Position numbers and translations under genes: made by a program. From Candidatus Pacearchaeota archaeon (lineage in GTDB: Archaea; Nanobdellota; Nanobdellia; UBA10117; JAFCGA01), in assembly GCA_017608345.1 (NCBI GenBank), contig JAFCGA010000002.1, positions 79,023 through 143,022 on the forward strand: a stretch of 64,000 nucleotides of DNA. The letters are read 5' to 3'. Positions 2,216 to 43,231 of this stretch are shown one piece after another (position 1 is the stretch's first letter; each line of letters begins with the position of its first letter). Under the pieces are notes generated by a model that ran no database searches, was not told the DNA's origin, and saw only the letters and a list, made by a program, of their open reading frames with translations.

Positions 2216-2902
2216 GTGGAACTGCAAGTACTGATTAACCCGTGGGTTAGTGGAGTTGATTGCGCATTTGATTTAATCGCCATAATCGTGGCTCTGTTAC
2301 TTACTTTATTTGCATATAAGATATATCTATTCTGTAAAATTAGAGAGTACAAATTCTTTAGCTTAGCTTTTCTAGCTATAGCCGGATCATTCTTTTTTAA
2401 GATTTTGACACATATTTCGCTGCATAAGGATCCAGTTTTAGAAGTAGTCACGAATACAGTTAGCTTCGCGGTGCATTCATCTACCAACCTGCGCTTAGCT
2501 TTTATTATATCCATTTTCGCATGGAGAGCATTATTCTTAGCGGGTTTTCTGTTATATTATGTGTTATTAGATAAATCAAGAAATAATCGTCAGCTTTTCC
2601 TTTCACTTTACTTTGCTACCGCAATTGCAGCATTAAGTATCTATCAATCTGTCGTTTTCTATATAACTTCCGCAATCGTATTTGTATTTATCGTATACAT
2701 GTTATATATTAATTCACAGCAAAATAAAGCAAAACACGTTTCAGCGGTTTTTTATGCTTTTACCTTACTTCTCGCTGCACAAGTTACCTTTATATTTGTA
2801 TCGCTCCATAAAAACATATACTTCGTCGGCGAAATCTTGCAGCTAGTAGGGTTTGGTTTGCTTTTAGCGAACTATGTACTGCTAATGAAGCGCAAGTGTT
2901 AG
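2216..2902 (+). CDS. Polytopic membrane protein, unknown function
   Basis: About 7 hydrophobic segments. It overlaps the next ORF by a few nt, suggesting an operon with the wHTH and NUDIX genes. Confidence 0.55.
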   Translation: MELQVLINPWVSGVDCAFDLIAIIVALLLTLFAYKIYLFCKIREYKFFSLAFLAIAGSFFFKILTHISLHKDPVLEVVTNTVSFAVHSSTNLRLAFIISIFAWRALFLAGFLLYYVLLDKSRNNRQLFLSLYFATAIAALSIYQSVVFYITSAIVFVFIVYMLYINSQQNKAKHVSAVFYAFTLLLAAQVTFIFVSLHKNIYFVGEILQLVGFGLLLANYVLLMKRKC

Positions 2903-3180
2903 AAGCGATAATGTCAGTAAGACGAACTAATATAGAAATAATTGGAGATATTCTTAAAGCTATCCGACAGGCTCGAGGTTTGAAGCCGACACATGTTATG
3001 TATAAGGCTAATCTTTCTTATAAGCTGTTGAAGGATTATTTAGATGAATTAAGAGAAAAGGACCTGATAGTTGAAGCAGAGGATAAAGGTCATAAGATGA
3101 TTAATATTACAGATCGGGGATTGAAGTTCTTAGAAAAGTACGAGCAGATGGAGAAGTTTAAGGAGAGCTTTGGGCTATAA
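2896..3180 (+). CDS. Small winged-helix DNA-binding protein
   Basis: About 90 aa; IIGDILKAI...KPTHVMYKANLSYKLLKDYLDEL..KDLI resembles archaeal wHTH regulators. The stop abuts the NUDIX start (TAATG). Confidence 0.5.
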   Translation: MLEAIMSVRRTNIEIIGDILKAIRQARGLKPTHVMYKANLSYKLLKDYLDELREKDLIVEAEDKGHKMINITDRGLKFLEKYEQMEKFKESFGL

Positions 3181-3575
3181 TGGTTAAGGATAGAGTTGCA
3201 GCAATTATTCTAAACAATAAGAAGATGTTGCTGGTTACAGGTTACGATGAATTATATTATTGGACTCCCGGTGGCAAAATAGAAGAAGGAGAGGCCCATG
3301 AAGCATGTTTAAGACGAGAACTAAAATCTGAATTAAATATAGAAATGACTTCTCTGAAACACTACGGCACCTATAAACTCATCAACAAGGTCGAAAACGA
3401 AATGCAGGTAAATAATTACTATTTGGTTCAATACGAAGGAGAATTTAAACCAGGAGATGAGATTACCAAAACAATTTGGTACTCTAAGCAGAATTTTCTA
3501 GATAAGTCACCTAGAATTTCTGAAGGAGTAGAAACAACTCTAATCCCGAAATTAATACAAGATGGATTTTTCTAG
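3180..3575 (+). CDS. NUDIX hydrolase
   Basis: Nudix box GGKIEEGEAHEACLRRELKSELNIE. Confidence 0.8.
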   Translation: MVKDRVAAIILNNKKMLLVTGYDELYYWTPGGKIEEGEAHEACLRRELKSELNIEMTSLKHYGTYKLINKVENEMQVNNYYLVQYEGEFKPGDEITKTIWYSKQNFLDKSPRISEGVETTLIPKLIQDGFF

Positions 3576-3587
3576 TAATTGAACAAT

Positions 3588-3620
3588 GATAGATTCAAAG
3601 ATCTGAATAGCATAATATAA
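3588..3620. repeat. 3'-flank arm of the 23S rRNA processing stem (pairs with 6532-6560)
   Basis: gatagattcaaagatct (3588-3604) is the exact reverse complement of 6544-6560. gcataatataa (3610-3620) is the exact reverse complement of 6532-6542. Confidence 0.8.
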
Positions 3621-3639
3621 TCGAGCTGTTAGTAACTGC

Positions 3640-6525
<2,886 letters not shown>

Positions 6526-6531
6526 CGTGTT

Positions 6532-6560
6532 TTATATTATGCAAGATCTTTGAATCTATC
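6532..6560. repeat. 5'-flank arm of the 23S rRNA processing stem
   Basis: See 3588-3620. Confidence 0.8.
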
Positions 6561-6661
6561 AATTGAATATCAATTATTCAATTACATTGTTCTCGAGCCG
6601 AGAAAATCTCAGTTCGAGTAAACTGTACAAAATCAACGAAGATTCTGAACAGAAAGTAAAG

Positions 6662-6846
6662 TGGACCCGGAGGGATTTTCAAGCTACAAAGTTGCCGAAG
6701 GTATATTCGGAGCGACGAAGTCGCGTAGTAAAATACCTTTTCTTTGGGCTACCTTACACCTTTCTTTTTCTAAAAGAAAGGGGCAGTTTGAACCCCCAGC
6801 CTCCTGCATGCAAAGCAGGCGTTCTACCGGGTTGAACTACAGGCCC
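6662..6846 (-). tRNA. tRNA-Ala(UGC) in the 16S-23S spacer, with an inferred 111-nt insertion (about 6676-6786) in the T-loop
   Basis: The sense strand reads GGGCCTG TA GTTC..GAAC G CCTGC TT TGC AT GCAGG AGGCT GGGGG TTCAAA [111 nt] T CCCTC CGGGTCC A. The acceptor closes with the G3:U70 Ala identity pair. Confidence 0.8.
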
Positions 6847-6964
6847 ATAGTTTTAAGACAGATTGGTCGATTTATAAGGTTTTTCTTTGGGCCACTTATC
6901 GCGAACCGAAGTTCGCGATCTGTTCGTCCGCGTACGCTTGGAATTAGCGTACAAACATGAGTAT

Positions 6965-6981
6965 AAGTAGATGAATAGCTT
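6965..6981. repeat. 3'-flank arm of the 16S processing stem (pairs with 8730-8745)
   Basis: aagtagatgaatagctt versus aagctattcatctact form 16 complementary bp bracketing the 16S gene. Confidence 0.75.
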
Positions 6982-7653
6982 AACCTTCTTTGAGTATTAA
7001 TCAGGATACTTGCAAGCAAGTATCCTGATTTTAAAAGGAGGTGATCCATCTGCAGGTTCCCCTACAGATACCTTGTGTTGACTTCGCCCGCCTCGCTGAA
7101 CCAGGATTCGACTTAACCAAGAAGTTGAGCCTCATCCCAACCCAACTCGGTTGGCGTGACAGGCAGTGTGTGCAAGGGCCAGGGACACATTCACCGCACG
7201 ATGCTAACGCACGATTACTAGGGATTTCGTTTTCACGAGGGTGAGTTGCAACCCTCGATTCGAAAAGATTGAATTTAAGGGATTGGCTTCTCCTTTCGGA
7301 GTTGCAGCCCGTTGTTTCAACCATTGCTTGCCGCGTGTAGCCCAGAGGATTCGAGGCATACTGACCTACCGTAGCCTACACCTTCCTCTCCCTTTCGAGA
7401 GCAGTCCCTTCAGTGTGCTTATTCTCAATGAGAATAGTGGCAACTGAAAGCGTAGGTCTCGCTCGTTGTCTGACTTAACAGAACACCTCACGGCACGAGC
7501 TGACGGCGGCCATGCACCATCTCTCAGCGCGTCGAGTGAGCCATTCAGGCTGACCTTCATTCTGCTGTCGCTTCTGGTAAGGTTCCGGGCGTATAATCCA
7601 ATTGAACCGCAGCACCCACCCCTTGTGGTAGCCCCCCGCCAATTCCTTTAAGT

Positions 7654-7698
7654 ATACTGTAGCTACATTTCTCTAATATTTGTAAGAAAATATAGCAA
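7654..7698 (-). other. 16S insertion 1 (45 nt, putative intron) splitting GGCTGAA | ACTTAAAGGAATTGG
   Basis: The conserved block is contiguous in ordinary archaeal 16S but interrupted here. Boundary is +/-2 nt. Confidence 0.7.
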
Positions 7699-7817
7699 TT
7701 CAGCCTTGCGACCGTACTCCCCAGGTGGCCTGCTTAACGACTTCTCTCCGACACTGCATGCTCACGAAGAACATGCAGCACCTAGCAGGCAGCGTTTACG
7801 GCTAGGACTACGAGGGT

Positions 7818-7882
7818 TATTAGGGCTCTGGAAAATAGTTTTCTTTTTCCAGGGTTTTTCTTTTTAAAAAAAGAAAAAGCCT
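7818..7882 (-). other. 16S insertion 2 (65 nt, putative intron) splitting GGATTAGAT | ACCCTCGTAGTCC
   Basis: The interrupted block is the 785-806 'universal primer' region. The insert folds into two hairpins: TTTTTCTTTTT/AAAAAGAAAAA and CTGGAAAA/TTTTCCAG. Confidence 0.75.
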
Positions 7883-7980
7883 ATCTAATCCTCTTTGATC
7901 CCCTAGCTTTCATCCCTGACCGTCAGACCCGTTCTAGTTAGACGCCTTCGCCGCTGGCGGTCCTCTGGGGATTAAAACAA

Positions 7981-8071
7981 TGTAACTGCACTTTTTCGCT
8001 GCTTTGCAGCAAGTAAAGTAGTTTCTTTTGGGCTACCTTACACCTTTTCTTTCCTAAAGAAAAGGGGCAGT
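7981..8071 (-). other. 16S insertion 3 (about 91 nt, putative intron) splitting GAGCGGTAAAA | TTGTTTTAATCCCCAGAGGACC
   Basis: It interrupts the conserved GGTAAAATCCTGTAATCC-type block and carries a module shared with the tRNA-Ala insertion. Confidence 0.7.
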
Positions 8072-8235
8072 TTTTACCGCTCCCCCCAGAATACCTCTAA
8101 CTCCTCCCGGTCTCAAGCTAAGCAGTATTTTCAGCACGCCTGACAGTTGAGCTGCCAGATTTCACTAAAGACTTACTTAGCCGGCTACGGATGCTTTAGA
8201 CCCAATAAACGTGACCACCACTAAGGGCGCCGGGA

Positions 8236-8266
<31 letters not shown>

Positions 8267-8729
8267 CCCTTTATTCCTGAAGCGTTTTGGACTCCAGAAA
8301 AGCAGACGCAAAAAGCGCCTGCACGTAGGATTCCCCCATCACGCTTGCGCGCATTGTGGAGTATTCAGAACTGCTGCACCCCGTAGGGCTGGGAGCCTTA
8401 TCTCAGTCTCCCTCTCAGGGCTAGGACTCTCATCCCCCTTACAGATCTTAGGTTTGGTGAGCCGTTACCTCACCAACAGCCTAATCTGCCGCCAACTCAT
8501 CCTATGGCGCCGAAGCTTTGGATAAAAGCGCATTCCAGCCTCTTTTATCTATCGGGAATTATCTTCAGTTTCCCGAAGTTATGCCCGACCATAGGGTAGA
8601 TTATTGACGTGTTACTGAGCCTTTCGCCATGATTTCTCATAGACTTGCATGTCTCATGGATCCTACTAGCAGTGGTCTCCCGCAGGATAAACGGGAATTG
8701 TGATCGCATTAAAATAGAATTGGCTATTA

Positions 8730-10498: not shown

Positions 10499-10641
10499 TG
10501 CAGGGGACAGGGTTCGAACCTGCGTAGGCACTAAGCCACTGGGTCCTAAACCCAGCCCGTTCAATCGCAACCAACGCTAAGCTATCTTCTTTCCGCCAGC
10601 GCTTTCTTAAAGGGCTGCTTTGACCACTCCGGCACCCCTGC
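10499..10641 (-). tRNA. tRNA-Leu(UAG) with an inferred 57-nt insertion (about 10561-10617) in the D-loop
   Basis: GCAGGGG TG CCG GAGTGGTCAAAG [57 nt] A CGG G CTGGG TT TAG GA CCCAG, followed by a long variable arm, GCAGG TTCGAAC CCTGT CCCCTGC A. Confidence 0.75.
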
Positions 10642-29735: not shown

Positions 29736-29837
29736 CGTAAGTTTTATAAATCCTCCCCCCGTCTCTCAAATTACCCCTTATAGAATTCTGTCGTCATTAG
29801 ATTTGAGAATAAAAACAGCGTACATAATAGCAGCAAC

Positions 29838-29846: not shown

Positions 29847-29876
29847 CTCATACTCAAACCCTAGAAAGAGGTAGTA

Positions 29877-29942
29877 ATGGGACACAACAAAAGACAGCGA
29901 CCAAAAAGAGGAGCAAATAGTTCTGCAGCCTCGAGCTCTTAA
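29877..29942 (+). CDS. 21-codon upstream ORF whose first 13 residues equal the L3 N-terminus (MGHNKRQRPKRGA)
   Basis: My translation is MGHNKRQRPKRGANSSAASSS*. Compared with rpl3 codons 1-13 there are 8 nucleotide differences, all synonymous. Confidence 0.5.
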   Translation: MGHNKRQRPKRGANSSAASSS

Positions 29943-30018: not shown

Positions 30019-30055
30019 ATTTATCGCTATTGAAGCGATAAGGAACGCGATAAAC

Positions 30056-31045
30056 ATGGGACACAATAAACGACAAAGACCAAAGCGAGGCGCGAAGCAA
30101 TTCTGGCCGAGAGTCAGAGCTAAACGTATGTATCCGCGGATTCGCTCTTGGCAGAAGCATTCTCAAACTAAGTTATTGGGATTTGCTGGCTATAAGGCCG
30201 GTATGACACATATTCATTTCGTGGATAACCGTGCTAATTCTCCGACAAAGGGCGAGGAGATACGGATGCCCGTTACGGTTCTCGAAACCCCGTCGATTCA
30301 TATTCTTTCTGTTCGTTTATACCAAAAATCTGGTTATGGTCTTTCTTTAATTTCTGAAGCTTGGGCGGATACTCTAACTCAAGATCTCAAACGAAGGCTA
30401 AAATTACCTAAGAAGCGATCAAATAAACTTCAAGAGCTTGAAAAGCAGTTAGAAAAAGCAGCCGAAGTAAGAGTTTTAATTTATACACAACCGAAGTACA
30501 CTGGTTTTGGAAAGAAAAAACCAGACGTATTTGAGTTAGGGATCGGTGGAAGCGATCCAAAGGCTAAGTTTGATTTCGCAAAATCTATTCTGGGAACGGA
30601 TGTTCCACTGTCTCAAGTTTTCAAGGAAGGAGAAATCTTAGATGTCCACGCAATAACCAAAGGAAAAGGATTCCAAGGAGTAGTAAAGCGGTTTGGAGTA
30701 AAAATTCAGCCAAGAAAGGCAGAAACCAGAAGAAAGATCGGAACCCTTGGTCCATGGACGCCAAAGAACGTACCTTACTGGGTTCCAATGGCCGGTCAGA
30801 TGGGTTTCCACCCGCGGACAGAGTACAATAAGCATCTTCTAAAAATTGCAAACGCTAAAGATCAAGAAGTAACTCCGAATGGCGGATTTGTAAGATACGG
30901 GCAAGTCAAAGGAGATTATATCTTGGTTGCAGGATCCGTTCCTGGTCCGAAGAAGCGATTAATCACACTCACACATGCAACACGAGCGTACAAAACAATT
31001 CCCGCTCCAGAGAATGTAGAAATTAGTCGGAGGAGTCAGCAATGA
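30056..31045 (+). CDS. rpl3: 50S ribosomal protein L3 (uL3)
   Basis: N-terminus MGHNKRQRPKRG..FWPRVRA plus cluster position. Confidence 0.95.
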   Translation: MGHNKRQRPKRGAKQFWPRVRAKRMYPRIRSWQKHSQTKLLGFAGYKAGMTHIHFVDNRANSPTKGEEIRMPVTVLETPSIHILSVRLYQKSGYGLSLISEAWADTLTQDLKRRLKLPKKRSNKLQELEKQLEKAAEVRVLIYTQPKYTGFGKKKPDVFELGIGGSDPKAKFDFAKSILGTDVPLSQVFKEGEILDVHAITKGKGFQGVVKRFGVKIQPRKAETRRKIGTLGPWTPKNVPYWVPMAGQMGFHPRTEYNKHLLKIANAKDQEVTPNGGFVRYGQVKGDYILVAGSVPGPKKRLITLTHATRAYKTIPAPENVEISRRSQQ

Positions 31046-33164: not shown

Positions 33165-33796
33165 TGGCGTTTAAGGGAAGTTTCCAAGCATATGATAGCA
33201 AAACAATGGCAAAAGTAGTTGGGACTCACCTTCCGATTTCCTCAAAAAACTCACGCGAAATAGCTAGAGTGATTGCAGGCATGAATCTAGATGCTGCGAT
33301 TAAATACCTCGAGGATGTAATGGACAAGAAGCGTGCAGTTCCATACAAGCGATATAATCGAGATACTCCGCATCGAAAAGGAAATGGTTTCGGAGCAGGC
33401 AGATTTCCAAATAAGTCAAGCATGTTCATCATTAATTTACTAAAATCCTTAAAGGCAAACGCTTCAGATAAATCGCTTGATTCAGATAATCTGCAAATCG
33501 TTCACGTTGCAGCACAGCGAGGATCAGTTTTATGGCACTATGGGCGATTGAGAGGTCGGAGAAGAAAATGTACTCACTTCGAAGCCATTGCTAAAGCAAT
33601 AGATAAACCAAAAAAAGACGTAAAGACGATGGATAAGAAAGCAATTCCGAAAGAGATAAAGGAAAAGGTTAGTCCGGAAGTTAAAGTGGAAAAACCAGCA
33701 CAGAAAAAAGAAGAAATTAAGGTTGCGGCACCGAAAGTTGAGAATAAACCAGCGCTAAAGAAAAAAGAAAACGCTACAGTGGAGAATAAAAAATGA
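33164..33796 (+). CDS. rpl22: 50S ribosomal protein L22 (uL22) with a K/E-rich C-terminal tail
   Basis: Core matches archaeal L22 (..SSKNSREIARVIAGM..); about 65 extra low-complexity residues. Confidence 0.9.
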   Translation: MAFKGSFQAYDSKTMAKVVGTHLPISSKNSREIARVIAGMNLDAAIKYLEDVMDKKRAVPYKRYNRDTPHRKGNGFGAGRFPNKSSMFIINLLKSLKANASDKSLDSDNLQIVHVAAQRGSVLWHYGRLRGRRRKCTHFEAIAKAIDKPKKDVKTMDKKAIPKEIKEKVSPEVKVEKPAQKKEEIKVAAPKVENKPALKKKENATVENKK

Positions 33797-34623
33797 TTGA
33801 GCGAGAATTTATCAAAAACAAAGTCCGGGATCTTAATATACAGAAGGAAATCGGATTCATCGTCAAGAAGAATGCAAGTATAGGTAGTATTATTGTTGAA
33901 AAAACACCATTGAGCGAGACTATAACTATTGATGCAGTTAGACCCGGAATAATAATCGGTAGACGCGGAGAAGTAATAAAGAGGATAACTTCGGAGATTA
34001 AGCGTAAATATAAGTTAGATAATCCTCAGATTAAAGTTCGAGAAATCGCACAGCCATTCTTAAACGCACGAGCAGTAGCAGAGAGAATTGCATCGACTCT
34101 GGAACGATTCGGGTCAGCTAGATTCAAGTCAACAGGACACAGATCTGTTTCCTCGATCTTGTCTGCAGGTGCGTTGGGTGCAGAAATCATACTTTCAGGT
34201 AAATTGCCAGGTAAGCGAGCAAGATCTTGGCGATTTTATGATGGGTACATGAAGAAATGCGGTGAGATTTCAGATGTTTATGTTGATAAGGCAATAGAAT
34301 ATGCTACCCTCCCTTCAGGAGTTATCGGGATAAAGGTTAGCATAATGCGAGAAGATGTTCCGCTTCCAGATAAAATTACTATTTTCGAGCCGAAAGAAAG
34401 CGTAGAAGAAATACCTAAAATCGCTATCAAGGCTGCTGAAAAAACCGAAACTAAGCTAGCGGCCGCTGAACAAATAAAAAAATCAGAAGCGGCGACAGTA
34501 AATGCGGAACCCGCTAAAAAAGCAGTAGTTGTCAAGAAAACTGTAGCTAAGAAAGAAAGTAGTTCGAAATTAAAAGTAATTATCAGTAAAGCAACTACGG
34601 AAAAGGAAACCAAAAAGAAGTAA
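33793..34623 (+). CDS. rps3: 30S ribosomal protein S3 (uS3) with a K/A-rich C-terminal tail
   Basis: KH domain ..GIIIGRRGEVIKRI..; position. Confidence 0.95.
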   Translation: MIEREFIKNKVRDLNIQKEIGFIVKKNASIGSIIVEKTPLSETITIDAVRPGIIIGRRGEVIKRITSEIKRKYKLDNPQIKVREIAQPFLNARAVAERIASTLERFGSARFKSTGHRSVSSILSAGALGAEIILSGKLPGKRARSWRFYDGYMKKCGEISDVYVDKAIEYATLPSGVIGIKVSIMREDVPLPDKITIFEPKESVEEIPKIAIKAAEKTETKLAAAEQIKKSEAATVNAEPAKKAVVVKKTVAKKESSSKLKVIISKATTEKETKKK

Positions 34624-34832: not shown

Positions 34833-35141
34833 ATGAGTGATATATGTCCTGTTTGCGGTTTACCAAAGGACCTCTGCATGTGCTCTGCGGTTGCTAAGGA
34901 AAAACAGAAAGTCCTAATAAAGCTTGACAAGCGTCGATACGGTAAGCTTTTGACGCTTATCGAAGGGATCGATAAAAAACAAGTTAACATCAAGGATCTT
35001 GCAAAGCAACTCAAGGGAAAACTTGCATGTGGCGGAACAGTTAAGGATAGCACGATTGAGCTTCAAGGAAGTCATAAAAACGCTGTGAAGAGAATCTTGC
35101 TGACGCTTGGTTTCACCGAAGATTCAATTGAAATAAGGTAA
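34833..35141 (+). CDS. Translation factor SUI1/aIF-1
   Basis: N-terminal CPVCGLPKDLCMC knuckle plus SUI1 fold ..KLACGGTVKD..IELQG.. Confidence 0.9.
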   Translation: MSDICPVCGLPKDLCMCSAVAKEKQKVLIKLDKRRYGKLLTLIEGIDKKQVNIKDLAKQLKGKLACGGTVKDSTIELQGSHKNAVKRILLTLGFTEDSIEIR

Positions 35142-35158
35142 GCTGCGAGGAGAAAAAT

Positions 35159-35422
35159 ATGATAACACCACAAACTATAATTCGACACGAGCTAATCGGA
35201 TTGCGGGCTGAAGTCAAGCAAGCAAAAAACAAAGCCGCGATCGGAATTCGAGGCGTGATCACCGATGAAACTCAGAATACGCTTGAGGTCGAAGGTAAGA
35301 AAGTGTTCAAGGCAGGCTCTGAATTCCAAGTAGAGCTGCCAAATAAAGTGAAAGTATTGGTCGCTGGAGATAACCTCAAAATGCGACCTTGGGAACGGAT
35401 TAAAAAACGGAGAAATGGTTGA
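35159..35422 (+). CDS. rnp1: RNase P protein component 1 (Rpp29/Pop4)
   Basis: HELIGLRAEV..IGIRGVITDETQNTLEV; canonical position before S17. Confidence 0.85.
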   Translation: MITPQTIIRHELIGLRAEVKQAKNKAAIGIRGVITDETQNTLEVEGKKVFKAGSEFQVELPNKVKVLVAGDNLKMRPWERIKKRRNG

Positions 35423-35879
35423 AGCAAAGAAAACAAAATCAAAAGTCGAGAAGAAAACAGCTAGCCCTGCTAAGCCAAAGGTACAAAAGAAACCTGCTGA
35501 AGCGAAACCAAACGCAGTAGCTAAGAAAGCTACGGTGCCGAAAGTGGCTAAAAAATCAGCAAAAGTAGTAATTCCAAAAGCTCCTGAGACGGAAGGAGTA
35601 TGCGAAGATAGGCACTGCGCAGTTCACAAGCATATGAGCGTACGCGGTAGAGTGTTCATTGGAACTGTAATTAAAGATAAAATGAATAAATCAATTGTTG
35701 TTGAGTGGCCACGAAGGGTCTTAATTAGAAAATATGAGCGGTATGCGAAAAAGCGCTCTCGAGTTTCAGCTCACAATCCTAAATGTATTACTGCTAAGGT
35801 CGGCGACCGAGTAAAAATCGCTGAATGTAGACCAATTTCAAAGACTAAGAAATTTGTAGTTGTGGAGGTGCTGAAATGA
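35415..35879 (+). CDS. rps17: 30S ribosomal protein S17 (uS17) with a roughly 55-aa K/A/P-rich N-terminal extension
   Basis: Core ..VRGRVFIGTVIKDKMNKSIVVEW... Confidence 0.9.
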   Translation: MVEAKKTKSKVEKKTASPAKPKVQKKPAEAKPNAVAKKATVPKVAKKSAKVVIPKAPETEGVCEDRHCAVHKHMSVRGRVFIGTVIKDKMNKSIVVEWPRRVLIRKYERYAKKRSRVSAHNPKCITAKVGDRVKIAECRPISKTKKFVVVEVLK

Positions 35880-36232
35880 GCCCGTTCAAATATGATCCTG
35901 TTGAAGTAGCAAGATTAGACGCAGAACGCTGGAAAGCGATAGATGATAAGAATATAGAAAATATTATAGCGGTTGCTACTAAGTTTTACACGGCTCGTTA
36001 TGGTATTTCTGAGAAATCTGCATCAGAACTAACTAATATTCGAACTGAAGCAGCAATGTGCAGAAGAAATGAAAATTATGATGGCGCAGCAGAGCATCTG
36101 ATTCGATTTTATACTCAATTACAAGAGATAATGAGAAAATCAGGAGAAGAAAATGCTACAGGCGTACGAGCTACAGAGTTAGTTGGTAGGATGAATCAAG
36201 CTGAGAAACATTACAGAGATCTTGAAAGATGA
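35876..36232 (+). CDS. Hypothetical 118-aa non-basic protein inserted between S17 and L14
   Basis: ATGA overlaps at both ends. Predicted all-helical, with no ribosomal protein signature. Confidence 0.6.
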   Translation: MSPFKYDPVEVARLDAERWKAIDDKNIENIIAVATKFYTARYGISEKSASELTNIRTEAAMCRRNENYDGAAEHLIRFYTQLQEIMRKSGEENATGVRATELVGRMNQAEKHYRDLER

Positions 36233-36633
36233 AAGCAATAAAATCAAAAGTATCCAAAGGGCTCCCAATAGGAGCTTACGTGAATGTTGTAGATAATTCT
36301 GGAGCTAGAATTATGCAAGTAGTTAGCGTAAGAGGATACAAGACAAGAACAAGAAAGCTAGCTGAGGCAGGTGTTGGAGATAGAATTACTGCAGCTGTAA
36401 CTTCAGGGAAGCCAGATATTAAGCACAAAGTTGTGCACGCAGTAATTGTTCGGCAGAGAAAGCCGTACCATCGCCCAGACGGCACGCGAGTAAAGTTCGA
36501 AGATAATGCAGGAATCATACTCAAAGATATCAAATTAGGTATGCCCAAAGGAACAGTAATAAAGGGTCCAATAGCAAAGGAGGTAGCAGTCCGCTGGGCT
36601 AATGTAGCTAAGATTGCTAGTATGGTATTATGA
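36229..36633 (+). CDS. rpl14: 50S ribosomal protein L14 (uL14)
   Basis: ..VVDNSGARIMQVVSV... Confidence 0.95.
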   Translation: MKAIKSKVSKGLPIGAYVNVVDNSGARIMQVVSVRGYKTRTRKLAEAGVGDRITAAVTSGKPDIKHKVVHAVIVRQRKPYHRPDGTRVKFEDNAGIILKDIKLGMPKGTVIKGPIAKEVAVRWANVAKIASMVL

Positions 36634-36944
36634 CAGAGATGAGACTAACTGCTGACGACTTTCCTGGAAAGAAGAGGAGTGAGCCAATTAACACAGATGA
36701 ACTAATGAGTGAAATTGGTCGTAAATGCGAATTATTGTTTAACAATGACGAATTAGAGCAAGTCAAAGCAGGCAACAGCGGAAAGATCGGGATCTATGGT
36801 ATGAATCGGCATACCTTAGAGATTGCAAGAATAGCTATTGTCGATACGGATATAGATTGCCTTGATTTCAAGACCGCTGAACCATGGGAAAGAGTATATT
36901 GCCAAACATTTGGTGACCGAAGATATGGGGGCACAGTAAATTAG
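36630..36944 (+). CDS. Hypothetical 104-aa acidic protein inserted between L14 and L24
   Basis: ATGA overlap with the L14 stop. Its own stop abuts the L24 ATG directly. Confidence 0.6.
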   Translation: MTEMRLTADDFPGKKRSEPINTDELMSEIGRKCELLFNNDELEQVKAGNSGKIGIYGMNRHTLEIARIAIVDTDIDCLDFKTAEPWERVYCQTFGDRRYGGTVN

Positions 36945-37346
36945 ATGAGAAAGAAATTCAGTCTGAGCTGGAATAGCTCAAAACAGCCCAGGAAACAACG
37001 CAAATACAAATTCAACGCTCCGCTGCACATCAGACACAAGCTAATGGCAGCTCATTTATCAGAAGAGCTAAGGAAAAAGCACAAGAAGAGAAGCTTTCCA
37101 GTTAGAAAAAAGGACAAAGTCAAGATCCTACGGGGTCAATTCAAGGGAATCATGGGAGAAATCGAAGAAGTTAACCTTAAAAAGTACAAAGTTTACGTAA
37201 AAGGAGCTGAAATCGATAGAGGCGAAGGAAGAAAGATAAGATATCCAATATCCCCTTCAAATTTAATCATACTCACATTGAATTTAGACGATAAGCGTAG
37301 AAAAGCTGCACTTGAGCGAAGTAATTCGAAGGAGGAAAAGAAATGA
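36945..37346 (+). CDS. rpl24: 50S ribosomal protein L24 (uL24)
   Basis: KOW motif ..VRKKDKVKILRGQFKG.. Confidence 0.9.
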   Translation: MRKKFSLSWNSSKQPRKQRKYKFNAPLHIRHKLMAAHLSEELRKKHKKRSFPVRKKDKVKILRGQFKGIMGEIEEVNLKKYKVYVKGAEIDRGEGRKIRYPISPSNLIILTLNLDDKRRKAALERSNSKEEKK

Positions 37347-39854: not shown

Positions 39855-40609
39855 CTGACTTAAAACAAAAGCTCGCTGAGCGCAAGAAATTGAAGAAAAA
39901 GACACCAACTTTCGCTAGACAGGAAGCTCATGTTAGAAAAAGATTGCCTAGCTCTTGGAGAAAACCACGAGGAGTTCACTCGAAAATGCGCAGAGGGAGA
40001 GCAGGAAAGCACGCAGTAGTTAAAATTGGATATGGTGGCCCCACTGAAGTCAGAGGGCTAACAAAAGAAGGTTTAGTGTCAATAACAGTTAGCACAGCAA
40101 AGGATCTTGCGATGATTACTGGAAAAGCAGCGATTTTATCTAGCACTATTGGGCGCAGGAAGAAATTGCAGATATTAGAAGCTGCAAAGAAGTCAAATAT
40201 ATCTTTTCAGAATGTCAAAGACGTAGCTGCCGAGATAATTAAACTCAAAACCGCTGTTGATAAGCAGAAGCTCGAAAAGAAAAAGCGATTCGAATCTAAG
40301 AAGAAAAAGAGGAAGCTATTCGCGAAGAAAGAAAAGAAAGACGACAAGAAACTTGAGAAAGAAGAGACGAAAGCAGAAGAGAAATCGCCTGAAAGTAAAG
40401 AGCAGAAACCCGCGGAGAAAAAGCAGGAAGCTAAACCTTTAGATGCCGTAAAGAAGACAGAGAGTAAGGAAAAGAGACCTGTAGAAAAGAAGCCGGAACC
40501 AAAAGTTGAGGCACCGAAAGTCGAGAAGAAGCAGCAAAAGCCTGCTGGAAAAGTATTAGAATCAAAACCAAAGAAGGTAGTTCCAAAAGTCGAGGAGAAA
40601 CGCCAGTGA
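39851..40609 (+). CDS. rpl32e: 50S ribosomal protein L32e with a roughly 125-aa K/E-rich C-terminal tail
   Basis: ..FARQEAHVRKRLPSSWRKPRG.HSKMR.. core. Confidence 0.9.
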   Translation: MTDLKQKLAERKKLKKKTPTFARQEAHVRKRLPSSWRKPRGVHSKMRRGRAGKHAVVKIGYGGPTEVRGLTKEGLVSITVSTAKDLAMITGKAAILSSTIGRRKKLQILEAAKKSNISFQNVKDVAAEIIKLKTAVDKQKLEKKKRFESKKKKRKLFAKKEKKDDKKLEKEETKAEEKSPESKEQKPAEKKQEAKPLDAVKKTESKEKRPVEKKPEPKVEAPKVEKKQQKPAGKVLESKPKKVVPKVEEKRQ

Positions 40610-42366: not shown

Positions 42367-42834
42367 ATGAAATTAGCAGTAGTTAGAGTAAGAGGCATAG
42401 TTGGAGTAAATCAGCGGATAGAGGATACTATGAAACTTCTTCGGCTGTATAAAAAGAATCACTGTGTTGTTGTCGAAGATTCCAAAGCTGTTCGAGGCAT
42501 GCTAAATAAGATTAAAGATTATAGCACTTTTGGAGAGGTCGACGAAAAGACCGTTAACGAGCTCCTAGAAAAGCGCGGGCGAGTAGTTGGTAATAAACCA
42601 CTCACTGAAGCTTGGACTAGAAAGCAAGCTAAGATGGATATCAAACAGTTAGCTGCTAAGTTCTTCAAAGGAGATATTAAGTTAAAGGACGTTCCAGGAT
42701 TAAAGCCTTGGTTTAAACTAGCTCCTCCGCGAGGCGGTTTCGAGCGAGAGGGTATAAAGAAGGCTTTCTCAGTCGGCGGGGTTTTGGGTTATCGGAAAGA
42801 TAAGATTAGTGCTTTGATTCGGAGGATGATTTAG
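42367..42834 (+). CDS. rpl30: 50S ribosomal protein L30 (uL30)
   Basis: MKLAVVRVRG....TMKLLRL.. Confidence 0.9.
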   Translation: MKLAVVRVRGIVGVNQRIEDTMKLLRLYKKNHCVVVEDSKAVRGMLNKIKDYSTFGEVDEKTVNELLEKRGRVVGNKPLTEAWTRKQAKMDIKQLAAKFFKGDIKLKDVPGLKPWFKLAPPRGGFEREGIKKAFSVGGVLGYRKDKISALIRRMI

Positions 42835-42835
42835 A

Positions 42836-43231
42836 ATGGCAGATATAATTGCAGAGGTAATAGTCTCAAATATAGATACGGATTATCTTAGGATGTGTAT
42901 ATTAAGTGGAGAATCTAGCTCCGCAACGCTAGCTGATAAGAAGCAGACAGAGTTAGAAGGAATACGAAGATTTGTCCCCGCACTAGAGTCTCTCAGAGAT
43001 AAATTGGATCTAGATTTTGATATCTTTGCGCATAAGCGGAGCTGGGATGGCCAGATTTTTTTGTATTTAGGAGAACGTACATATTCAGATAGACCTTATA
43101 TGAATAGCCGATGGCATACAGCGATCACCACAGCTAGTCCGCTTTCTGAGCAAATATCTCTAGATGTTCAATCTACAATTGCTCAACAATTTGTTGACGC
43201 AGTAGAGAACTATAAAGCAGAGAATAATTAA
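42836..43231 (+). CDS. Hypothetical 131-aa acidic protein inserted between L30 and L15
   Basis: 1-nt spacers on both sides. No ribosomal protein signature. Confidence 0.6.
   Translation: MADIIAEVIVSNIDTDYLRMCILSGESSSATLADKKQTELEGIRRFVPALESLRDKLDLDFDIFAHKRSWDGQIFLYLGERTYSDRPYMNSRWHTAITTASPLSEQISLDVQSTIAQQFVDAVENYKAENN

Follow-up and report, generated by a model that had tools for sequence, protein, structure and literature searches.

What is a gene without relatives doing inside the ribosomal-protein (r-protein) supercluster, a textbook case of frozen gene order? The question is raised by ORF2, an open reading frame (ORF) for 104 residues that separates the uL14 and uL24 genes in a 64-kb stretch of archaeal DNA (contig JAFCGA010000002.1), hereafter the window. 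The supercluster lies on the + strand and runs from uL3 (30056) to SecY (45016) in the order uL3, uL4, uL23, uL2, uS19, uL22, uS3, uL29, aIF1/SUI1, Rpp29, uS17, ORF1, uL14, ORF2, uL24, eS4, uL5, uS14, uS8, uL6, eL32, eL19, uL18, uS5, uL30, ORF3, uL15 and SecY. The first-pass annotation regarded ORF1, ORF2 and ORF3 as three unrelated, coupled insertions, encoding either lineage-specific ribosome-associated factors or mere passengers. On balance, our analysis suggests that ORF2 is a genuine orphan gene restricted to its lineage, probably translated, that rides as a passenger and has captured the coupling point between uL14 and uL24.

Coding and homology evidence for ORF2

At the 5′ junction, the TGA of uL14 (36631-36633) shares the tetranucleotide ATGA (36630-36633) with the ATG of ORF2 (36630-36632). 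At the 3′ junction, the ORF2 stop codon TAG (36942-36944) abuts the uL24 ATG (36945) with zero spacing, giving TAGATG at 36942-36947. These spacings of -4 and 0 nt are like those of native gene pairs, and ORF2 and uL24 have a common reading frame. An alternative in-frame ATG is located at 36639 (M4), 5 nt past the uL14 stop, and the true ORF2 start could be either codon. Comparison with relatives revealed that the C-terminus of uL14 and the N-terminus of uL24 are complete and conserved. The ORF2 product is hydrophilic, with a net charge of -5.4 and a grand average of hydropathy (GRAVY) of -0.61, and ends in ...QTFGDRRYGGTVN. It shows no stalk-type (aP1-like) architecture, having neither an Ala/Gly-rich hinge nor an acidic-hydrophobic C-terminal tail. 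Inspection of the sequence verified the coordinates, length and acidity of ORF2 in the first-pass annotation, together with the ATGA overlap and the abutting uL24 ATG.

The open frame itself is hard to attribute to chance. A frame of this length occurred in 4.4e-4 of mononucleotide shuffles, and only 1.3% of antisense stop-to-stop frames are as long; moreover, the ORF1, ORF2 and ORF3 segments are each open throughout, over 104-131 codons. Coding potential was scored with a 3-periodic second-order Markov model trained on long ORFs of the window. ORF2 reached +17.1 bits in frame, about 4 standard deviations (sd) above stop-free random frames (-13.4 ± 7.3, maximum 12.4 in 2000), and the five other frames of its segment gave clearly negative scores. 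Per nucleotide, ORF1, ORF2 and ORF3 scored 0.077, 0.054 and 0.045 bits, respectively, compared with at most 0.016 for shadow ORFs. The GC fractions of ORF2 at codon positions 1, 2 and 3 (0.47/0.38/0.38) are close to those of native genes (0.48/0.35/0.33), its overall GC content and purine skew agree with the operon, and its synonymous codon usage falls inside the native range. The codon adaptation index (CAI) of 0.69 is uninformative on expression level, since in this genome r-protein genes cannot be told apart from the rest by CAI. A chance ORF is very unlikely as the origin of ORF2, which is protein-coding or was so very recently.

Profile scans assigned ORF2 to no family. Pfam gave nothing at E ≤ 1, ribosomal or otherwise, NCBIfam only a noise match (E 0.037, 13.6 bits against a cutoff of 246), PHROG no match, and PADLOC, in a test for defence, anti-defence and toxin-antitoxin functions, no defence-system family at E ≤ 1. 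The non-ribosomal nature proposed for ORF2 was thus borne out by all profile tests. A word-indexed search of 5.8e9 proteins and a full phmmer search of 1.84e9 representatives each retrieved ORF2 alone; PDB sequences (best E 0.75), IMG/VR, and phages and plasmids searched by tblastn yielded nothing. Within the 64-kb window there is no paralog or DNA copy of ORF2. A decayed duplicate of uL14 or uL24 was also considered and rejected, as ORF2 is similar to neither. Searches with ORF1 and ORF3 likewise retrieved only the queries, and the best BLASTP match between ORF2 and these two was to ORF3 at E 2.3, in agreement with the claim that the inserts are unrelated. An AlphaFold2 model of ORF3 reached a predicted local distance difference test (pLDDT) score of 56.

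The closest uL14 sequences come from metagenome-assembled genomes (MAGs) of Woesearchaeota, Pacearchaeota and Nanoarchaeia, with 71% identity in a one-genome-per-species collection and 69% in metagenomes. Among about 15 billion proteins clustered at 90%, uL14, uS17, uL30, uL15, eS4 and SecY of the window are each singletons. No genome in the collections searched has r-proteins at least 90% identical to those of the window, and exact look-ups of ORF2, uL14, uL24 and uS14 matched no contig. Judged by these comparisons, the predicted host is an uncultured Woesearchaeota-like DPANN archaeon of a lineage otherwise unsampled, which limits the meaning of finding no homolog of ORF2. Separately, the uL24 protein from start 36945, unlike its neighbours, has no exact copy in the 15-billion-protein collection; the public uL24 gene call probably uses another start.

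Initiation signals and inserts at r-protein junctions

All starts of the operon were scored against the 3′ end of 16S rRNA, GGAUCACCUCCU. The two Shine-Dalgarno sites with the strongest pairing are those upstream of ORF3 (-14.4 kcal/mol) and ORF1 (-13.0 kcal/mol). In related loci, denoted here by L-numbers, these sites in the conserved 3′ ends of uL30 and uS17 directly precede uL15 and uL14. In the window, uL14 (-5.0 kcal/mol) and uL15 (-2.9 kcal/mol) are without a Shine-Dalgarno site, each beginning either at the stop of the insert or 1 nt beyond it. No such site precedes ORF2 (-2.9 kcal/mol), which sits in the ATGA overlap by which relatives, L001 and L066 among them, join uL14 to uL24; the sole Shine-Dalgarno-like element of uL24 is a distant GGGGG at -17 to -13. 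We found no TATA-like box inside the operon and, between 32791 and 40993, no run of five or more T residues. Oligo-T tracts are archaeal termination signals. A T7 run is located inside ORF3 at 43056-43062, upstream of uL15-SecY, and ORF3 might attenuate transcription into uL15 and SecY by means of it.

The window was compared with 99 related loci, 91 of which were used for the spacing of uL14 and uL24. The two genes are adjacent in 88 of the 91. None of the 99 contains a homolog of ORF1, ORF3 or, by tblastn, ORF2, and in every sampled relative of its Woesearchaeota-like group ORF2 is missing from the uL14-uL24 junction. The three exceptions are all Micrarchaeota-like, and their inserts (Table 1) are basic, hydrophobic and unrelated to ORF2. 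Two of these loci, L083 and L086, have near-identical uL14 sequences, yet their inserts are without BLASTP similarity. The Micrarchaeota-like inserts represent an independent colonisation of the same junction. Relatives carry from none to two insert ORFs, compared with three in the window; together with the prevailing uL14-uL24 adjacency, this supports the earlier view that three unrelated coupled insertions are unusual.

Table 1. Coordinates of ORF2, its neighbours and the comparable features of the window and of related loci
Feature	Locus	Positions	Strand	Details
ORF2	window	36630-36944	+	104-aa orphan coding sequence, acidic soluble-looking product; from ORF listing and coding statistics
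uL14	window	36229-36633	+	Pfam Ribosomal_L14, E 2.6e-33
uL24	window	36945-37346	+	Pfam Ribosomal_L26/KOW, E 3.4e-29
Direct repeat AGATGAGA, 5′ copy	window	36637-36644	+	8 nt; includes alternative ORF2 start M4
Direct repeat AGATGAGA, 3′ copy	window	36943-36950	+	spans uL24 start codon
ORF1	window	35876-36232	+	between uS17 and uL14; 118 aa; ATGA overlap at each end
ORF3	window	42836-43231	+	between uL30 and uL15; 131 aa
Shine-Dalgarno GGAGGTG	window	35864-35870	+	in uS17 3′ end, before ORF1; duplex with 16S 3′ end
Shine-Dalgarno GGAGGATGA	window	42821-42829	+	in uL30 3′ end, before ORF3
SUI1 and Rpp29 genes	window	34833-35422		within the supercluster
Archaeal rRNA operon	window	3609-8698	-
Insert at uL14-uL24	L083	531-833		100 aa
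Insert at uL14-uL24	L086	1044-1367		107 aa
Insert at uL14-uL24	L049	4410-4577		55 aa
Singleton ORF at uL30-uL15	L064	6948-7301		117 aa; Woesearchaeota-like metagenome contig
Singleton ORF at uL30-uL15	L065	14458-14790		110 aa; Woesearchaeota-like metagenome contig
Singleton ORF at uL24-eS4	L065	8818-9156		112 aa; Woesearchaeota-like metagenome contig
Singleton ORF at uL24-eS4	L066	8806-9204		132 aa; Woesearchaeota-like metagenome contig
Palindromic repeats	L064	517-607 and 4606-4696		also in L002, L072 and L066
Palindromic repeats	L064	5643-5716 and 7732-7806		also in L002, L072 and L066

Other junctions of the supercluster are occupied in L064, L065 and L066, whose singleton ORFs (110-132 aa) are mostly acidic. 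None of these ORFs has a Pfam domain or a relative in any other locus, and the uL24-eS4 inserts of L065 and L066, the only two compared with viral contigs, have no relative there. L064 is identical to the MAG contig L002 over 4999 nt and shares about 90-95% DNA identity with L065 across the operon. The uL24-eS4 insert is present in L065 and not in L064, and the uL30-uL15 inserts of the two loci are non-homologous (alignment z = 1.4). From these comparisons, r-protein junctions in this clade appear as carriers of fast-turnover, strain-specific small ORFs. The same pair of loci points to homologous recombination in the conserved flanks, by which such inserts are probably acquired, or exchanged between strains.

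Inserts at these junctions are also non-coding. In L064, a Woesearchaeota MAG, two families of palindromic repeats of 75-90 nt, resembling repetitive extragenic palindromes or miniature inverted-repeat transposable elements (REP/MITE-like), lie exactly at four r-protein junctions, and are missing at the same sites of L065. Since non-coding inserts are tolerated at the L064 junctions, an open frame is not merely imposed by the operon, which favours either selection on the ORF2 protein or a recent coding origin. In L058, another Woesearchaeota MAG, two antisense genes of 150 and 137 aa (2718-3623, - strand) split Rpp29 from uS17; the second has, by eye only, a DUF523-like appearance. The supercluster of these archaea, the comparison suggests, is more permissive than reputed. 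Full-text searches of the literature turned up no account of orphan ORFs lodged between DPANN r-protein genes; one paper deals with lineage-specific archaeal hypothetical proteins, but not with such ORFs (PMC9258230).

We looked for traces of how ORF2 arrived. The two copies of the octamer AGATGAGA near its ends are 306 nt (102 codons) apart. The repeat could have arisen if the uL24 start was duplicated upon insertion, but as evidence for an insertion just past that start it was rejected by an empirical null. The insert ends carry no terminal inverted repeats of the MITE or IS type, the 3′ end has no integron attC-like imperfect inverted repeat, and there is no non-coding DNA at either end. 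Elsewhere in the window, the uL3 start with the leading 13 codons of the gene (MGHNKRQRPKRGA) occurs twice, in a 54-nt direct repeat of 74% identity (29864-29917 and 30043-30096). The duplicate forms a 21-codon upstream ORF (29877-29942), which has a separate GAGG Shine-Dalgarno-like site, precedes the genuine uL3 start by 179 nt and lies just downstream of TATA-like boxes at 29743 and 29839. This arrangement looks like an insertion flanked by a duplicated gene start, and would record a similar process more clearly than AGATGAGA does.

The three inserts share an acidic composition, with isoelectric points (pI) of 6.15 for ORF1, 4.86 for ORF2 and 4.64 for ORF3. About 80% of the other window ORFs are basic, so that three acidic inserts would have P ~0.008 if independent. 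Their arginine share, R/(R+K), is 0.57-0.63 and exceeds that of all 41 native ORFs first tested. As a foreign signature this bias was rejected: acidic native proteins reach 0.52-0.56, so the bias tracks acidity, and GC and Arg codon choice are native-like. Outside the operon, window ORFs that reach 100 aa have a median pI of 9.45; only about 20% of them are acidic, and these contain little Lys, their R/(R+K) rising to at most 0.56.

Competing explanations for ORF2

The explanation we consider somewhat better than an even bet runs as follows. ORF2 would have inserted at the uL14-uL24 junction as a passenger and not as a part of the ribosome, and would be transcribed inside the polycistronic r-protein mRNA. 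Ribosomes ending at the uL14 UGA would re-initiate at the overlapping ORF2 AUG, or at the AUG at 36639, and those ending at the ORF2 UAG would re-initiate at the adjoining uL24 AUG. With re-initiation at both ends, ORF2 would replace the direct coupling of uL14 to uL24, and uL24 synthesis would depend on ORF2 translation. The product would be small, acidic and cytosolic and would serve an accessory function outside the core, our best guess being that it binds a basic partner. ORF2 would be part of a group-wide build-up of strain-specific singleton ORFs at r-protein junctions. As to the two halves of the original proposal, passengers gain credit from the position of ORF1 and ORF3 behind the initiation signals of the relatives' uL14 and uL15 and from the strain-variable singletons at analogous sites; ribosome-associated factors gain none, as neither conservation, nor homology, nor a confident structure was found.

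Several points weigh against this explanation. ORF2 is carried by one genome only and has no homolog that would reveal purifying selection. A young insert copied from some coding sequence would show a similar codon periodicity. The single-sequence AlphaFold2 model of ORF2 is poor (pLDDT 49), and a Foldseek search of PDB with this low-confidence model gave a best match of E 1.2 (Mad2/HORMA, probability 0.10), which is meaningless. Finally, the putative target duplication AGATGAGA is non-significant, as 5.6% of operon start-region pairs share an 8-mer or longer (P ~0.056).

A translated spacer is unlikely but deserves the most serious attention among the alternatives. It would be a recent insert of 0.3 kb that was kept because it is open and in phase and lets ribosomes arrive at the uL24 start, its peptide being neutral or quickly degraded. 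Such a spacer fits the singleton status of ORF2, the quick turnover of analogous inserts between close strains and the failure to predict a confident fold; coupling would matter at this site, because uL24 is without a well-placed Shine-Dalgarno site. It fits less well with the protein-like codon-position composition of ORF2 and its Markov score far above stop-free random frames. Nor is openness obligatory, given the non-coding inserts tolerated in L064, and all three inserts are open over their whole length and acidic.

That ORF2 encodes a lineage-specific ribosome-associated factor, for example an acidic escort or chaperone made in step with the basic uL14 or uL24, seems to us quite improbable. 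The geometry of the genes would make co-expression with uL14 and uL24 obligatory, the acidic product is encoded beside very basic proteins (pI 10.6-10.7), and all three inserts are acidic among largely basic native ORFs. In eukaryotes, some acidic proteins serve as dedicated chaperones of r-proteins, Bcp1 for uL14 being one. ORF2 resembles Bcp1/BCIP in its acidity and in the putative tie between its synthesis and a very basic r-protein, but this is an analogy only: the two share no sequence relationship, ORF2 is not conserved, and no match of ORF2 to the known Bcp1/BCIP-like chaperone family was obtained by Pfam, PDB sequence or Foldseek. The acidity of the inserts is compatible with binding basic partners such as r-proteins, and equally with many other roles. 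Homology to ribosomal or assembly families is lacking, ORF2 is absent from the 88 intact junctions, and the remaining three hold unrelated ORFs that are basic and hydrophobic. The corresponding inserts of relatives vary between strains and are unrelated to one another, unlike a ribosome component, and their turnover, together with the absence of ORF2 from nearly all relatives, argues against a core ribosomal role for the predicted protein. A combined version is also doubtful, in which the r-protein junctions of Woesearchaeota-like DPANN archaea serve as landing pads for orphan genes that seize downstream initiation signals and so enter the programme of ribosome synthesis, and ORF2, with ORF1 and ORF3, would now serve the basic uL14 and uL24 as a lineage-specific acidic partner, whether in escort or in assembly.

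There is little room for the idea that ORF2 is no gene at all, but a non-coding insert, a structured RNA or an assembly artefact that contains an ORF by chance. It draws on the orphan status of ORF2 and on a weak C/D-box-like Rfam match, snoZ168 at 36596-36686, which scores 21 bits against a gathering score of 36 (E 0.28). No Rfam family reaches its gathering score in the region, and the RNA folds no more stably than shuffled sequences (z = -0.93); an RNA element, whether a C/D-box small RNA or an r-protein leader, was therefore rejected. The improbable open frame and native-like coding statistics, the operon-like composition, and junctions that are phase-perfect at both ends, unexpected from misassembly, stand against the remaining variants. 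Least probable of all, an N-terminal extension of uL24, fused into a 238-residue protein by read-through or a sequencing error at the TAG, is suggested by the shared frame, which only this TAG interrupts, and by the long extensions on r-proteins of this genome, but frame sharing is expected by chance in 1/3 of cases, TAG is a genuine stop at the conserved C-termini of uL30 and SecY, uL24 begins with the conserved MRKKFSLSW... as in relatives, and the genome's own extensions are Lys/Ala/Glu-rich and of low complexity, not acidic and mixed as ORF2 is.

The orphan passenger gene that we favor can be set beside known systems. The embedded genes of the archaeal S10-spc operons (aIF1/SUI1, Rpp29 and SecY) are co-transcribed with r-protein genes, as ORF2 is predicted to be, and like ORF2 have spacings of 0 to -4 nt and no promoter or terminator of their own; however, they are conserved, with fixed positions across archaea and with known functions, whereas ORF2 is a singleton at an otherwise uninterrupted junction. 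Prokaryotic taxonomically restricted genes likewise combine an intact ORF and native-like coding statistics with the absence of homologs from very large databases. Flexible islands and the neighbourhood of mobile elements are the usual home of such orphans, whereas ORF1, ORF2 and ORF3 belong to the cell's most conserved operon, and ORF1 and ORF3, unlike usual orphans, sit behind the initiation signal of the downstream r-protein gene. Free-standing homing endonuclease genes and phage morons also take the form of small ORFs set precisely at the boundaries of conserved genes, and the inserts of L064, L065 and L066 resemble them in varying by presence, absence and replacement among close relatives. 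ORF2 differs from both in that it has no nuclease domain (HNH, GIY-YIG, LAGLIDADG or other, by Pfam and PHROG) or any other domain, no promoter or terminator of its own and no viral relatives, and lies on a cellular chromosome.

The interest of ORF2 lies mainly in the wider pattern of junction inserts, the evidence for ORF2 itself being one genome. If real, the pattern means that a flexible fraction exists even in the most conserved operon, and it offers a clean natural setting in which to study the acquisition of expression by new genes via translational coupling. Inserts that bind r-proteins would represent a new kind of lineage-specific archaeal ribosome factor, and landing pads that yield acidic partners would add a class of archaeal r-protein chaperones so far undescribed.

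Other features of the window

Long low-complexity extensions rich in Lys, Ala, Glu and Pro are found at the N-terminus of uS17 (35415-35600) and at the C-termini of uL22 (33600-33796), uS3 (34350-34623) and eL32 (40250-40609). The 16S rRNA gene (7036-8698, - strand) is 1663 nt long compared with a model of 1478 positions, implying one or more insertions that add up to about 185 nt, and the 16S-23S spacer holds a tRNA-Ala at 6754-6847. Rfam further matched the whole tRNA model over 143 nt at 10499-10641 (- strand), probably an intron-containing tRNA that was missed by ARAGORN.

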